This document shows, one piece after another, positions 3,781-33,043 of a DNA stretch of 64,000 bases; the stretch's first letter is position 1; the number at the start of each line of letters is the position of its first letter. This stretch comes from a phage, in the NCBI GenBank assembly GCA_030980935.1, contig GCA_030980935.1_3059.1. One strand, 5' to 3'. A program made the position numbers and the translations under genes. The notes beneath the pieces were generated by a model. It worked only from the letters and a program-made list of their open reading frames with translations. It had not been told where the DNA came from and made no database searches.

Positions 3781-4241
3781 TAGTAAAGGTCCTCAGAGTA
3801 AAGTTCTTTTTCACTACCACCACGTTCAATACGTACTTGTCCAGCGTAAGTTGCAATAATCATTGCTTCTTCACGTGTCCAATAATTACTGTATTGGTCA
3901 ATAAACCCTTGGTCATCATCACAAACTTGTTGAGTAACTAATTGAGGTTTAACTACATCTAAAACTTCTGCCATATCTTTAGAATAATGACGAGCACCTG
4001 GAATAACAAGAGTTCGTCCATCTTTTAATTTAAAACGGTTGGCTGCGCAAACAATTCGTCGTTGATACTTTTGATTTTCGTCCCAATATGCAGTCTGCCA
4101 ACAGAGTTCAGGAACTTCTTTCAGAATATCTTCTTCTGTGCATTTATAACCATGTGCTTTAAATTTTTCAACAAGACTTTCTGGAGTTTCACGAGATAAA
4201 GGAACATTCAGCATTTTTAAACGATTAATAAATGGGTTCAT
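3780..4241 (-). CDS. Hypothetical protein (153 aa)
   Basis: Track ORF; stop overlaps next start. Confidence 0.55.
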
Positions 4242-26987: not shown

Positions 26988-28327
<1,340 letters not shown>

Positions 28328-28417: not shown

Positions 28418-28618
28418 ATGGTACAAAAATTAATGGCACTTGTTAATGCCATAAAAGGTAATAAAAAACGTATAGCTTTTACTATTTCTGCTATGGTAGG
28501 AATTTTACTCTGGAACTTTATTCTATCACCTATTGCAATTGCACATGGTATTAATATTCCAGTGGTTACTCTTGATACATTTGTAGATTTAGCATTTGCT
28601 TTAGTTGGGTTGATTTAA
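28418..28618 (+). CDS. Small membrane protein (66 aa), plus strand
   Basis: AAAGGAGGA RBS 4-12 nt upstream of ATG; two hydrophobic segments; convergent with gene 61 stop. Confidence 0.4.
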   Translation: MVQKLMALVNAIKGNKKRIAFTISAMVGILLWNFILSPIAIAHGINIPVVTLDTFVDLAFALVGLI

Positions 28619-29643
28619 ATCTTGGCATATTTAGATAGCCGCATTTTAGCCATCAACCCCTGTGCAATATTATTTTTCATATATTCCATAATTTGTTCAG
28701 GGGTTGCACCTTCCTTTCTAATCATATCATTAACATCTTTTGATTTCCAGGGAGATTTATCCCAAAACATAACCCTTTCTCCTGCATCAACTAATTTAGT
28801 CATTCGCTTAATAGTGTCAGGATGACGAGGTTCATTATCTAAAACCCACACACGTCTATCTTTAAATGGAACAACTTCTAGGTCTAATTGACCACCCGTA
28901 ATAGCTATACCATTTTCAATAAAAAGTGAATCTATAGGTCCTTCTAGAACATATACATCACCATCTTTAACTCGTTCGACTCCATAGATTTTTGTTGCTT
29001 CAGGATAAGCTTTGATGGTGATATATTTTTGGGGAGCATCTTTCTTTAATGCACGTCCTTGAAAAGACTCAGCTTTTCCATTAGCATTATAAATTGGAAT
29101 AACAAGACGAGGCTCAGGTATTTCCTTTTTATATGTTCCTGGTGCTATGCTATTAACTAATTTAGGCCATTCGGTTGTAAACCAAAGATATTTCCATTTA
29201 TCCTTTGGAATACAGCGAGCTTTTACATATTTTATAATTGGATGGTCTTCCGCCAATTTATCTAATCTAATGCATGACGGAAGAGATTTAATTATTTTCT
29301 TCTCAGGTTGTTTAGGAAGTTCTTTAGGTTTTTCTACTGGACGACTTTTACCTTTTTCTTTTCTTATTTCAAAGATATACTCACGATATAAATCGGGTTC
29401 AAACTCCTTTAAATATATTCCGATTGGTGCATGATAGTTACAGTTATAACAATGAATATTTCCTTCATTATTATCACCATAATACCATCCACGAGCTTTA
29501 TTCTGGTCGGTTTTTGAATCTCCACAAACTGGACATCTAAACCGCAATTTAAAAGTTGAACTATTATTTACTTGTGTGAATTTAGGTAGATGAGCTAATG
29601 CACGGTATGCAAACTCATTATCAATCCAAGGTATTGATGACAT
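28615..29643 (-). CDS. 61: DNA primase gp61
   Basis: 342 aa; zinc-binding CPVCGDSKTD...CYNC; Toprim region. Confidence 0.9.
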   Translation of the reverse strand: MSSIPWIDNEFAYRALAHLPKFTQVNNSSTFKLRFRCPVCGDSKTDQNKARGWYYGDNNEGNIHCYNCNYHAPIGIYLKEFEPDLYREYIFEIRKEKGKSRPVEKPKELPKQPEKKIIKSLPSCIRLDKLAEDHPIIKYVKARCIPKDKWKYLWFTTEWPKLVNSIAPGTYKKEIPEPRLVIPIYNANGKAESFQGRALKKDAPQKYITIKAYPEATKIYGVERVKDGDVYVLEGPIDSLFIENGIAITGGQLDLEVVPFKDRRVWVLDNEPRHPDTIKRMTKLVDAGERVMFWDKSPWKSKDVNDMIRKEGATPEQIMEYMKNNIAQGLMAKMRLSKYAKI

Positions 29644-29645
29644 TT

Positions 29646-29810
29646 TTACTCTTCTTTTTCTTTAGATTCCTCTTTCTTCTTTTTAGGAATCTGTTCAGGA
29701 CCTTTATTTACTACAGCACCTGACGTTGTTCCAGTAGAGATATTTTCAGGATTACCACCTGAATCTCCAGCGACCATATCTTCTTTAATAAATTCTTTAT
29801 ATGTTTTCAT
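29646..29810 (-). CDS. Small K/E-rich ORF (54 aa)
   Basis: Hand-translated MKTYKEFIKEDMVAGDSGGNPEN...KKKKEESKEKEE. Confidence 0.35.
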   Translation of the reverse strand: MKTYKEFIKEDMVAGDSGGNPENISTGTTSGAVVNKGPEQIPKKKKEESKEKEE

Positions 29811-29811
29811 A

Positions 29812-30168
29812 TTAACCTCTATTCATAAAAGCATTAAAAATTTGGTCATCAATAGATGGCGCAGTAATATTTTCTGCATCATTTAGCAAATCATTAATTT
29901 CATCAGATAGCATAACACATGTACCTTTATTTCCTGTAATTGTTACTGCACAATTACGAACGTTTTCTTTATCAAATTTTAGGTTAATATTTTCGTAGTG
30001 AAAATCCTTTAATGCCGAATATATCTTTAAAATGAAATTGTCTTTTACTACAATAAACCCAACCTCACTATTAAAACGCGGTTCATGGAAACTGTAATAA
30101 ACCTTTTCATCTATAAAATCGTATGAAATTTTTTCCATTTTTAAATATGAAAATTCAGAACTATACAT
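29812..30168 (-). CDS. Hypothetical protein (118 aa), 61.x family
   Basis: C-terminus SIDDQIFNAFMNRG shared with neighbour. Confidence 0.5.
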   Translation of the reverse strand: MYSSEFSYLKMEKISYDFIDEKVYYSFHEPRFNSEVGFIVVKDNFILKIYSALKDFHYENINLKFDKENVRNCAVTITGNKGTCVMLSDEINDLLNDAENITAPSIDDQIFNAFMNRG

Positions 30169-30169
30169 A

Positions 30170-30760
30170 TTAACCTTTATTCATAAAAGCATTAAAAATT
30201 TGATCGTCAATAGAAACTTTTACAATTTTGTGATCGATACCAAAATACACAGAAGCAATATTATTAATATTATTTTCAGTGAAATCTAAATCAACATCAA
30301 TATCTTTTTGACTAACGCTCAAAGGATAATTAATACGAATAATTCGATTATCTTTAACAAAGATTCCACCGACATACTCTGTGCTGCGTTTAAAGTTTAC
30401 ACGTTTCCTAAATGAAAAATATTCAGGTTCTTTATGGGCTCGACTCATAGGGCTTAAAGTATATTCCGAATATGAAATATCAAATCCTACACCTTCAATA
30501 TGAGCCAAAGTGTCATGATTAAACCAATTATAATCGTATGCCAAATCCATTAAATTGTAATATGTGAAAGGCACCGGATTAACATCATATGTTGTACCTT
30601 TAAAATCTGCCCAGGCAACGATTTCGTTATCTTTAACAATTACAAAAATTGTGCCAATAAGATATCCACGGTTATTTTCATCAGGCGTTATATTATAACA
30701 TTGTGCATCAGGAAATTTACCGTATTTAAACGGTGGATTTTTGTGCATATAATAAATCAT
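30170..30760 (-). CDS. Hypothetical protein (196 aa), 61.x family
   Basis: C-terminus SIDDQIFNAFMNKG; internal repeated VKDN motifs. Confidence 0.5.
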   Translation of the reverse strand: MIYYMHKNPPFKYGKFPDAQCYNITPDENNRGYLIGTIFVIVKDNEIVAWADFKGTTYDVNPVPFTYYNLMDLAYDYNWFNHDTLAHIEGVGFDISYSEYTLSPMSRAHKEPEYFSFRKRVNFKRSTEYVGGIFVKDNRIIRINYPLSVSQKDIDVDLDFTENNINNIASVYFGIDHKIVKVSIDDQIFNAFMNKG

Positions 30761-30761
30761 A

Positions 30762-31055
30762 TTATTCGCCTGTGATTTCGGTTACGATATTTTTGTTATT
30801 AAAGTTTTTATCGCAGTACAGAACATAATTATACTGCATTACACCACCAGACTTAAGTTGTTTTTGCACTTCAGCTTTCATTTCAGGACGATCGCGCTCA
30901 ACGATATTCATAATATCCGCTTCAATTTGAGTTTCAACTTCAGTCTGATCTGCAGTCATAGACCATTCACACAAATCTTTATCATATCCTGCCATAGCAG
31001 GCTGAGCAGCACAAGAAGCCAAAGTAAAAATTGTAGCAAAAATAAATTTTTTCAT
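30762..31055 (-). CDS. sp: Spackle periplasmic protein
   Basis: 97 aa with signal peptide MKKFIFATIFTLASCAAQPAMA; position between 61 and 41. Confidence 0.7.
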   Translation of the reverse strand: MKKFIFATIFTLASCAAQPAMAGYDKDLCEWSMTADQTEVETQIEADIMNIVERDRPEMKAEVQKQLKSGGVMQYNYVLYCDKNFNNKNIVTEITGE

Positions 31056-31115
31056 GATAATCTCCTCAGTAGTTTATGTTTATATAGTATCTCAATTTCC
31101 AACAAAAGTAAACAG

Positions 31116-31373
31116 CTATTTTAAAACTTCTGCGTAATCACATGTTACAAACTGTTTCTCTAGCTTAACGATTTTACGAAAATACCTTTTATACTGACGA
31201 ATCTGCCTCTTCGTAGGACGTACAGCAAACTTAATAAATTCCACTCGACCAAATGGAGGACTTTCTTCTGCTGGAATATCTAACACCAATTCCCACGTAT
31301 CTGCAATAAGTGCTTTGAATTGAGTATTTTTCCTGACGTTATACGGAGTAGGTTTAAATAAAACAATATGCAT
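31116..31373 (-). CDS. Hypothetical basic protein (61.4 position)
   Basis: Track ORF 31116..31427 trimmed to internal ATG (MHIVLFKPTPY...) to abut dmd. Confidence 0.4.
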   Translation of the reverse strand: MHIVLFKPTPYNVRKNTQFKALIADTWELVLDIPAEESPPFGRVEFIKFAVRPTKRQIRQYKRYFRKIVKLEKQFVTCDYAEVLK

Positions 31374-31374
31374 A

Positions 31375-31557
31375 TTATCCTCGGCAATCCACTTCGCACA
31401 CTTTCTTGTCATCAATGAAAGCTTCAACTAATGCTTTATTAACTTCAGCATATTGAGTAGTAGCCCATTGAACGTCATCTTTCATCATTGTGATTTCTTT
31501 AGTAAACATGCTTTCATTCTTAAACCACCCCATAAAAACTACCTTTACCAATTCCAT
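31375..31557 (-). CDS. dmd: Dmd antitoxin (inhibitor of RnlA/LsoA)
   Basis: 60 aa MELVKVVFMGWFKNESMF...; immediately downstream of gene 41. Confidence 0.7.
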   Translation of the reverse strand: MELVKVVFMGWFKNESMFTKEITMMKDDVQWATTQYAEVNKALVEAFIDDKKVCEVDCRG

Positions 31558-31584
31558 AACAATCTCCTCATTTAACCAACAAGA

Positions 31585-31620
31585 CTACTATACCATAGTC
31601 TTGTCAGCTTGTAAACTAAA
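31585..31620 (-). promoter_or_regulatory. T4 early promoter upstream of dmd
   Basis: GTTTAC (31611-31616) with TGGTATAG -10-like; overlaps gene 41 stop. Confidence 0.45.
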
Positions 31621-33043
31621 ATTTTAATTCATTTGCCAAAGCATCTAACTGTGCTCGAGTGGATTCATTTCTTTGATAGCGATTCTGTTCAGCCTGAATC
31701 TGTTGTGAACCTGCTACTTCACTCACTTCAGTTGGAGTAGAATCTTGTTCAATTTCTACCCATTTCTGATTTCCCTTTTGAACACCCATCAAAAACTTAT
31801 TCCACTTATTCTTATCGCCATATCGTGATTTGATTTGCTTAATGAGTTGTTGTTCAGCAGCTGCTAGCTCCTCGGTTTCAATGACCGCAAGCATAAAATC
31901 AGCTGTTGCTGGAAGACCAGCAGATTCTGCGATATCACTCATGTTAACATCGGAAGAGTCCCAAGCTTGTTTACCAACCTGTGCTGCAGTCCAAAGAACA
32001 GTTTCGGTTTCAACAGCAAGAGCACGCAATTCCTCTGCAATAGCTTTAACAGTTGTGTAACTATTTTCTGAGTAAACTCTGATGCGGCAAGATTTACAAA
32101 TACCTAGATAGTCGACAATAATGATTGTTGGAACAAAATTCTTTTTGAGCTTCAATTCATTCAAGAGAGACCTGAATGTGTTAGCATCTGCCCCACCAGT
32201 AGGGTACTGTTTAACAATTAAACGACCGAGAGTAGATTTCTCACGCCATTTTTCCATTTTTCCTTTATACTCAGCGTAAGAAATATGCCCATCATCAATG
32301 TCATCAAGAGAAACATCGAGCATATTAGCGTCAATACGTTTAGCACAGACTTCTTCTGCCATTTCCATGGAGATATAAAGAACGTTATGTCCAAGCTGTA
32401 AATAATCTGCTGCTAATGAACACAATCCTAATGATTTACCAACGTTAACGCCAGCCATTAAAACGTTCAGTGTTCCAGTTTCAGCTCCGCCTTTAGTAAT
32501 TTTGTTTAGAATTCTGAGTTTAAATGGAACCTTACGAGCTTTATTCATATAAGATAGCCAACGTGCTTCGTAGTCATCCATCCAATCATGACCAACGTAA
32601 CTATCAAATGAAATTGATAATGCTTGGCGCATGATGTCAGGAATAGCACCAACATCCGGCATTTTCTTATTTCGTTTTTCCGGAGGAAGCTCAGCATTAG
32701 TTTGAATTTCGATTATTTTAGACGTAGCATTAAACATCGCCCTTTGCTGAACATATTTTTCTGTTTCTTTTATTAACCAACTGTGGTCTTCCGGAGAATC
32801 AGCTAGTTTTGAAATAAGTGTTTTTACACCAGAATATTCTGTTTCCGTAAATGAACTATTTTCTAATGCAACATTTAACGCATTAATAGATGGAACGCTA
32901 TGATACTCATTGACATGAGATTTAATTAATTTGAATGTATTTTTAGCTGGACCACTTTCAAAATATTCTGAATCCATATATGGCCAAACTTTTGAAAAAT
33001 AAGCTTGATCAAATATGAGATGAGAAAGAATAATTTCTACCAC
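31616..33043 (-). CDS. 41: Replicative DNA helicase gp41 (DnaB-like)
   Basis: 475 aa; Walker A GVNVGKS and RecA-like core. Confidence 0.9.
   Translation of the reverse strand: MVEIILSHLIFDQAYFSKVWPYMDSEYFESGPAKNTFKLIKSHVNEYHSVPSINALNVALENSSFTETEYSGVKTLISKLADSPEDHSWLIKETEKYVQQRAMFNATSKIIEIQTNAELPPEKRNKKMPDVGAIPDIMRQALSISFDSYVGHDWMDDYEARWLSYMNKARKVPFKLRILNKITKGGAETGTLNVLMAGVNVGKSLGLCSLAADYLQLGHNVLYISMEMAEEVCAKRIDANMLDVSLDDIDDGHISYAEYKGKMEKWREKSTLGRLIVKQYPTGGADANTFRSLLNELKLKKNFVPTIIIVDYLGICKSCRIRVYSENSYTTVKAIAEELRALAVETETVLWTAAQVGKQAWDSSDVNMSDIAESAGLPATADFMLAVIETEELAAAEQQLIKQIKSRYGDKNKWNKFLMGVQKGNQKWVEIEQDSTPTEVSEVAGSQQIQAEQNRYQRNESTRAQLDALANELKF

Follow-up and report, generated by a model that had tools for sequence, protein, structure and literature searches.

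A C-terminal peptide shared by AdfA and a single-domain paralog, and its DNA as a probable boundary of gene gain and loss between sp and 61.1 of T4-like phages

The window analysed here is the whole 64,000-nt stretch of phage DNA from contig GCA_030980935.1_3059.1 (NCBI GenBank assembly GCA_030980935.1). Between the T4-like genes sp and 61.1 it carries two adjacent open reading frames (ORFs), adfA (anti-DarT factor A) with 196 amino acids (aa) and an ORF of 118 aa, which share their 3′ ends. We consider it likely that AdfA and the 118-aa protein are old paralogs which, together with a third type of protein encoded in the same slot of other phages, carry a common C-terminal tail, and that this tail is selected while its DNA bounds the recombinational gain and loss of genes. 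The 118-aa paralog, the invariant tail of the three groups and its role as a boundary of insertions and deletions (indels) appear to be undescribed; the gene island itself and AdfA are already known. The features on which the argument rests are the following.

29808..29856, minus strand: tail repeat copy 2 ('R-type'), adjoining 61.1 and encoding SIDDQIFNAFMNRG
29812..30168, minus strand: 118-aa AdfA-like paralog ('118-type'), matching positions 113-211 of the Pfam AdfA model
30166..30214, minus strand: tail repeat copy 1 ('K-type'), internal, encoding SIDDQIFNAFMNKG
30170..30760, minus strand: adfA (gene 61.2, anti-DarT factor A), 196 aa, Pfam PF23813, annotated as such in PV857777
30220..30224, minus strand: junction of a 42-bp in-frame deletion in adfA, inside a GTAA microhomology, with 14 aa (VICGYELPFEEQPK) removed
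30260..30262, minus strand: codon AAT, Asn167 of AdfA, equivalent to residue 164 of RB69 AdfA by residue counting

The shared tail

Both ORFs end in SIDDQIFNAFMN[RK]G, as had been noticed in the initial annotation, with 13 of 14 residues identical. The common DNA at these ends is real as well, although the coordinates first given for it (about 29768-29812 and about 30127-30172) were some 40 nt off and lay on the wrong side of the stop codons. A repeat search showed a single direct repeat. Its two copies, 29808-29856 and 30166-30214, are 49 nt long, agree at 46/49 positions and start 358 nt apart. Read on the coding strand, each copy runs from the final 14 codons through the TAA stop and one T to the ATG of the following gene. 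It is clearly beyond chance, as only about 1e-15 such pairs are expected in the 1.6-kb region. The VKDN motifs reported earlier were recovered too. The 118-aa ORF has one of them and the 196-aa ORF has two, which form an exact DNA repeat of 13 nt (30348-30360 and 30627-30639). The relationship goes beyond what had been noted before, since weak similarity spans the whole 118-aa ORF and not its end alone, and the 196-aa ORF is the characterised AdfA.

In loci anchored on the primase gene, every ORF ending in ...DDQIFNAFM... belongs to one of three groups. All three occupy the sp-61.1 slot, in at least four genera of Tevenvirinae.

AdfA group: 208-216 aa; Tequatrovirus, Mosigvirus
118-type group: 116-125 aa; Tequatrovirus, Gaprivervirus and two metagenomic T4-like lineages
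146-type group (phrog_8539): 143-148 aa; Dhakavirus, Gaprivervirus

A degenerate DNA pattern of the tail matched 16 contigs in IMG/VR, in this slot only, and 12 contigs in metagenomes, with the same three body types only. The pattern had no match in 185,579 bacterial and archaeal genomes, and the string QIFNAFM was not found in the literature searched. Between genera the synonymous sites of the tail vary (GAT/GAC, CAA/CAG, GCT/GCC/GCA, TTT/TTC, AGA/CGA) and DDQIFNAFM is constant, so the tail peptide itself is under selection. The contrast with the rest of the genes is strong. In the window the bodies of the two paralogs have reached saturation, with identities of 29% for amino acids, 43% for nucleotides and 31% for third positions, whereas their tails display 93% amino-acid, 93% nucleotide and 86% third-position identity. 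The three groups probably form a small family confined to Tevenvirinae, in which a variable linker joins a diverged domain of some 100 aa to the C-terminal helix DDQIFNAFM, which does not vary.

The 118-aa ORF and the architecture of AdfA

The 118-aa ORF reached 31.9 bits against the Pfam AdfA model (cutoff 27), over positions 113-211 only and with much of the score coming from the tail, and it also cross-matched the AdfA PHROG. When its last 14 residues were removed, BLASTP still aligned it in order with the C-terminal half of AdfA (E = 2e-4), the match to the N-terminal half being weaker. The C-terminal half of AdfA compared with the 118-type profiles without the tail gave 13.5 bits, a value that none of 200 shuffles reached, and in every pairing the tail-less hidden Markov model (HMM) comparisons did better than 197-200 of the 200 shuffles. 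With the 118-type profile as query, exhaustive HMMER searching of 1.84 billion representative proteins returned four 118-type clusters, one fragment and AdfA (E = 2e-9, in two stretches); two repeat proteins that also came up (Big_2 and DUF285) were rejected as spurious. Foldseek against BFVD recovered family members only, linking the 118-type model to AdfA and to the VR25 145-aa protein.

The AlphaFold2 model of the 118-aa protein has a predicted local distance difference test score (pLDDT) of 83 overall and above 90 for residues 11-90. The predicted body (residues about 8-100) has the order beta5-alpha-beta-alpha and is followed by a linker, and the tail is modelled as a separate helix (residues 106-115, pLDDT 52-58). 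Since the ratio of nonsynonymous to synonymous substitution rates (dN/dS) against orthologs is 0.09-0.33, the ORF is a real gene under purifying selection. We found the 118-type gene in 338 phage records, including T2, where it is labelled 'gp61.2'.

For full-length AdfA the AlphaFold model was poor (pLDDT 55.6) and for this reason was used for the order of secondary-structure elements only. This order occurs twice and is followed by the tail helix. The profiles of the N-terminal and C-terminal halves, compared without the tail, gave 11.1 bits, reached by one of 200 shuffles. From the duplicated order of elements and the profile comparisons we conclude that AdfA consists of two tandem copies of one domain plus the tail, and that the 118-aa ORF encodes a one-domain relative. 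With a single domain instead of the two-domain architecture of about 210 aa, the 118-aa protein is a paralog of the C-terminal half of AdfA and not an AdfA ortholog.

Tails as boundaries of gene gain and loss

The initial annotation would have been refuted had all T4-like genomes carried both ORFs with identical junctions, which is not the case. T4 has adfA only (208 aa), T2 has the 118-type gene only, and the window, G4507 and Ec_O157kw have both. We quantified the layouts with a 301-nt query spanning the junction of the adfA 3′ end and the 118-type 5′ end. Both genes, contiguous, were present in 158 of 680 matching records (at least 80% cover), the 118-type gene only in about 140 records (65% cover class, about 20% of the ranked list) and adfA only in about 310 records (51% cover class, about 45% of the list). 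These counts agree with the protein searches.

The both-gene layout of the window differs from the adfA-only layout of T4 by exactly one unit of 358 nt, a body plus a tail, bounded by the repeat. The adfA tail of T4 shows 0/42 differences to the tail of the 118-aa ORF in the window and 3/42 to the tail of the window adfA, which means that the tail proximal to 61.1 is the same whichever body precedes it. Such identity is the product expected if recombination ran from tail to tail. Conversely, one locus (L066) has a T4-type adfA body with a K-type tail where a 118-type gene comes next, and in general the tail variants follow the position in the locus and not the gene body. An independent parallel case is found in Gaprivervirus. 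In two loci (L020 and L022) a 118-type gene comes after a 146-type gene, whereas a third (L021) has the 146-type gene only. These layouts differ by 361 nt, and the junction falls within TAATATG.

Paralogous tails within one genome differ at 2-3/42 positions (window, L006 and L022), and orthologous tails of different genera at 7/42. This closeness within genomes points to gene conversion, and in L006 and in the window the synonymous variants are mosaic between the two tails. The initial annotation had suggested cassette duplication or insertion by recombination at a short shared sequence. Its second element, recombination at the repeat, is supported by these comparisons, but a recent duplication is not, as the bodies are saturated. 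If tails undergo homologous recombination and gene conversion with one another, inside one genome or when phages co-infect, genes would be added, removed or re-paired, and exchange of this kind could generate the adfA-only, 118-only and both-gene layouts.

One apparent expansion of the array was discarded. In Yersinia phage phiD1 (L053, HE956711.1, 1052-1960) two 118-type copies with a tail-bearing fragment between them seem to be present, in an interval rich in N and other ambiguous bases, and the double copy is a probable repeat-induced assembly artefact.

Alternative explanations

A recent partial tandem duplication would make the 118-aa ORF a new copy of the 3′ portion of adfA, of which the 49-bp identity would be the residue. 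It would account for two adjacent genes of the same orientation with identical ends, and for the in-order alignment with the C-terminal half of AdfA, yet we find it scarcely credible, given the saturation of the bodies, the presence of 118-type genes without adfA in the same slot of T2, Gaprivervirus and two metagenomic lineages, and the identity of only 33-49% between 118-type orthologs across genera. Rapid divergence by extreme diversifying selection is disfavoured by the low dN/dS. The tail might otherwise be kept for protein function only, with the indels produced by illegitimate recombination and seemingly bounded by tails as whole genes survive. The evident selection on the peptide fits this explanation, as do the T2-type layout, which needs an event that is not tail-to-tail, and the 42-bp deletion of the window, by which microhomology-mediated deletion does occur in the locus. 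We nevertheless regard it as very improbable, because two independent indels end exactly within the repeats, the tail variants track position and not body, in L006 and in the window the synonymous variants are mosaic between the two tails, and the two tails of L022 are nearly identical. T4 recombination, besides, operates efficiently with a few tens of bp of homology.

The conserved element could instead be a MotA-dependent middle promoter combined with a junction of Shine-Dalgarno sequence, stop and start, the peptide being a by-product. The final tail codons do provide the Shine-Dalgarno sequence of the next gene (AGAGG in copy 2, for 61.1, and AAAGG in copy 1, for the 118-aa ORF), and in TAATATG the stop overlaps and couples to the next start. 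The MotA box consensus is (a/t)(a/t)(a/t)TGCTT(t/c)A, followed after about 12 bp by a TAnnnT -10 element. Both tails (29809-29833 and 30167-30191, minus strand) contain TAATGCTTTTA, then 11-12 nt and TAATAT (TGCTT-N14-TAATAT), which resembles a MotA box with one box mismatch, and in NC_054924 the depositors annotated the same 27 nt as promoters on both tails. In the window TGCTT-N13-15-TANNNT occurs 30 times, mostly on the transcribed strand, an enrichment over the expected 14.7 that 0/100 shuffles reached, and the third-position identity of the tails could also be read in this way. However, TGCTT is broken in Mosigvirus, Dhakavirus and Gaprivervirus, where the Ala codon is GCA or GCC, and some Dhakavirus copies have TGATAT for TAATAT, while DDQIFNAFM is invariant throughout. 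The box TGCTTTT is one position off TGCTT(t/c)A, a transcript from there would start inside the next ORF, and the folding z-scores of the tails (-1.2 and +1.4) revealed no significant RNA structure. A DNA signal as the primary conserved element is thus improbable to us, and since TGCTT is not kept in the other genera, a MotA-type signal would be at most a secondary layer specific to Tequatrovirus.

Several observations weigh against old paralogs with a selected tail that bounds gene gain and loss. The similarity outside the tail is weak: hhalign gave E = 0.003 with low probability on local alignments with an effective number of sequences (Neff) of about 1.5, and the 146-type proteins scored 9.8 bits against the N-terminal half of AdfA, which 3/200 shuffles reached. 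The two tails of L020 differ at 7/42 positions and hence display no homogenisation, and part of the third-position identity in Tequatrovirus could come from the embedded promoter and ribosome-binding site rather than from gene conversion. The T2 layout cannot come from tail-to-tail exchange and needs a second event, the sole hint of which is a AGAGGTTAGT remnant, resembling the tail 3′ end, between sp and the 118-type gene. The case for recombination at the tails is comparative only, and the functions of the 118-aa protein and of the tail are wholly inferred. Moreover, T-even phages depend on AdfN and not on AdfA for resistance to DarTG1 (PMC11825919).

AdfA in this phage

The 196-aa ORF scored 404.1 bits against Pfam PF23813 (cutoff 27) over model positions 1-211, i.e. 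as a full-length member, and it sits between sp and 61.1 like gene 61.2 of T4 and RB69. AdfA was discovered through RB69 mutants escaping DarTG1 (Johannesman et al. 2025, PMC11825919). In RB69 AdfA the substitution R164H leads to binding and neutralisation of DarT1, which the protein with Arg at 164 does not neutralise, and T4 AdfA has His at the equivalent position, yet binds weakly (PMC11825919). The initial annotation had proposed co-expression with toxins of the RnlA/LsoA or ToxN type; for the two ORFs the relevant toxin is DarT, by way of AdfA (PMC11825919), and RnlA/LsoA and ToxN concern Dmd.

The allele in the window is unusual. It encodes 196 aa instead of 210, owing to the 42-bp deletion, which takes out VICGYELPFEEQPK, the segment that separates the C-terminal domain from the tail. 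All other sequences searched lacked this deletion. The metagenomic AdfA copies that we found all have 208-216 aa, no phage record had at least 95% identity over the AdfA protein of the window, and the exact protein had no entry among 153 billion gene positions. Where RB69 has R164 the window has Asn167 and not the His of DarT1-neutralising alleles; Asn is found there also in several relatives, including G4507 and cluster P0014. The 196-aa protein is therefore a member of the AdfA family, but not an allele shown to be active, and the 14-aa deletion may affect any binding or neutralisation of DarT1. As a natural variant with both a linker deletion and Asn, it bears on the roles of linker and tail.

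A further observation on adfA comes from phage AV122 (L052, 901-1527), whose AdfA is 71% identical overall to that of the window, and in which the last approximately 70 nt of the gene match the G4507-type allele. This pattern suggests that adfA itself may be mosaic, with recombination within the gene as well as at the tail.

Few phage factors are known to counter DarTG, and AdfA, whose fold is not recognisable, is one of them. The peptide of 10-14 residues shared by the three diverged groups, which is apparently tethered, offers a handle on its mechanism. T2 was described as a phage without an adfA homolog, and 13 of 17 tested Tevenvirinae have one (PMC11825919). Phages scored as lacking adfA, such as T2, carry the paralog, which matters for comparisons of DarTG and other defence phenotypes across T-even collections.

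Possible function and origin of the tailed genes

AdfA binds DarT1, and residue 164, which lies in the body, sets the specificity. By analogy the 118-aa protein could be an anti-defence binder too, directed at another target. The tail, being tethered, would be a constant module that contacts a common partner.

AdfA might have arisen by fusion of a 146-type and a 118-type gene. In Gaprivervirus (L020 2962-3895, L022 3016-3895 and L021 3323-3895) the tandem of 146-type and 118-type genes in L020 and L022 has the order of the AdfA halves. The N-terminal half of AdfA aligns weakly, in register, with the 146-type proteins (K-x-P-[DN]-A-Q-x-Y at residues 15-22 and a hairpin at 36-47). This gene order, the weak in-register alignments and the Foldseek link of the 118-type model to the VR25 145-aa protein form a thin basis for a fusion. 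The hhalign comparison of 146-type proteins with AdfA was set aside as a test of this link, since small local alignments (Neff about 1.5) are too weak to decide it.

An extended interpretation, which we regard as rather unlikely, is that the whole slot is a shuffling array of specificity cassettes, in which the tail is a docking helix for a common partner, possibly a component of the replisome, where DarT-type toxins meet single-stranded DNA, its DNA is the recombination linker and AdfA is a 146/118 fusion. If it were true, each of the diverged AdfA-like domains would be directed at its own host toxin or defence protein, and the DNA of the helix would let co-infecting T-even phages swap, stack or fuse cassettes.

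Organisation of the island and neighbouring genes

Tequatrovirus phages such as vB_EcoM_G4507 share 99.7% identity with the interval 29600-31620, for which 665 phage records gave a match. The six short ORFs that had been placed between genes 61 and 41 are all there (61.1, the 118-aa ORF, the 196-aa ORF, Spackle, 61.4 and Dmd), all on the minus strand, and the order of transcription is gene 41, dmd, 61.4, sp, the 196-aa ORF, the 118-aa ORF, 61.1 and gene 61. The earlier naming of Spackle and of a 60-aa Dmd is supported by full-length Pfam matches (T4_Spackle 152.3 bits, Dmd 154.4 bits), and the product of 61.4 is indeed basic. In addition to the features given above, the island and its flanks contain:

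28615..29643, minus strand: gene 61, DNA primase, 342 aa, the downstream flank of the island, 98-99% identical to the primases of T4, T2 and G4507
29646..29810, minus strand: gene 61.1, 54 aa, conserved, function unassigned (phrog_1823, 117 bits); its ATG is the final triplet of tail copy 2
30762..31055, minus strand: sp (Spackle), 97 aa, Pfam T4_Spackle
31116..31373, minus strand: gene 61.4, 85 aa, DUF7279, isoelectric point 9.9
31375..31557, minus strand: dmd, 60 aa, antitoxin against RnlA/LsoA, Pfam Dmd
31616..33043, minus strand: gene 41, replicative helicase, the upstream flank of the island

The best sigma70-type match of the region lies between gene 41 and dmd (31587-31615, minus strand; TTTACA-17-TATAGT with a TG extension), which fits dmd as an early gene. 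In a metagenomic T4-like phage of 173 kb (L054/L055, 1371-1991) an HNH endonuclease gene is located between gene 41 and the dmd region. In Dhakavirus and Gaprivervirus (L020-L028 and L035, about 3909-4112) the gene after the tailed gene is a second 61.4-like (DUF7279) paralog, present besides the one adjacent to dmd.

Two more ORFs were noticed near gene 61. An ORF of 186 aa (27767-28327, minus strand) lies directly downstream of a Dam (GATC) methyltransferase gene (26988-27767) with a 1-nt overlap. Its likeness to DpnII-type restriction endonucleases stays below threshold (Pfam E = 0.0099; PADLOC REase_II E = 1.3e-4). It has a D...EIK motif and is present in T2 as 'T2_31' and absent from T4. 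The other is a hydrophobic ORF of 66 aa on the opposite strand (28418-28618, plus strand), which overlaps the end of gene 61, had no Pfam match and is labelled hypothetical in G4507 and T2 ('similar to RB69ORF029w').

Comparison with known systems

The clamp-binding tails of T4 (gp43 ...SLDFLFG, and gp55) resemble the shared tail in being short acidic/aromatic C-terminal peptides on a flexible linker with an S-[IL]-D start, and the gp43 tail and the shared tail both end in Gly. Of the proteins encoded in the window, gp43 has SLDFLFG at its end and SLDFLY occurs in gp55. Nevertheless, SIDDQIFNAFMNRG did not match the gp45 clamp-binding motif SLDFL[FY] and gave no gap-free alignment with it, so that this assignment was rejected and we treat the likeness as a lead only.

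In polymorphic toxin/immunity loci, such as contact-dependent inhibition (CDI) and Rhs systems, a conserved motif marks the boundary of exchangeable modules. By analogy, the slot between sp and 61.1 may be compared with them in its conserved segment joined to variable specificity modules, its paralogous cassette arrays and its putative recombination at the conserved segment. It differs in that the constant part is a 14-aa C-terminal tail and the variable part an N-terminal body, and in that the products are small anti-defence proteins and no toxin is involved.

With the described AdfA (PF23813) the 196-aa ORF shares the family match, the sp-61.1 slot and the tail, but the window allele differs by the missing 14 aa before the tail and by Asn where DarT1-active alleles have His. 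The 118-aa protein has one domain versus two in AdfA, and the literature (PMC11825919) does not count it among the adfA homologs, though T2 carries the 118-type gene. Neither the 118-type paralog nor the shared tail is mentioned in that study (PMC11825919).

The closest parallel in kind is the modular shuffling in T4-type phages mediated by PeSLs (promoter early stem-loops; Arbiol et al. 2010, PMC2839356; Comeau et al. 2014, PMC4122927). There, too, short conserved sequences stand at gene boundaries in a hyperplastic region, and recombination inserts, deletes or replaces small non-essential genes (PMC2839356). The two systems also have in common that indels between related phages are bounded by the repeat, which here holds for the units of 358 nt and 361 nt. 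PeSLs do not code for protein and consist of a sigma70-type early promoter and a stem-loop terminator, whereas the tails had no sigma70-type match, no terminator and no significant hairpin; the tail repeat is coding and combines a selected peptide with a translational-coupling junction. A selected coding motif that probably acts also as a recombination linker would complement the non-coding PeSLs, and may explain the re-assortment of anti-defence genes in T-even phages.

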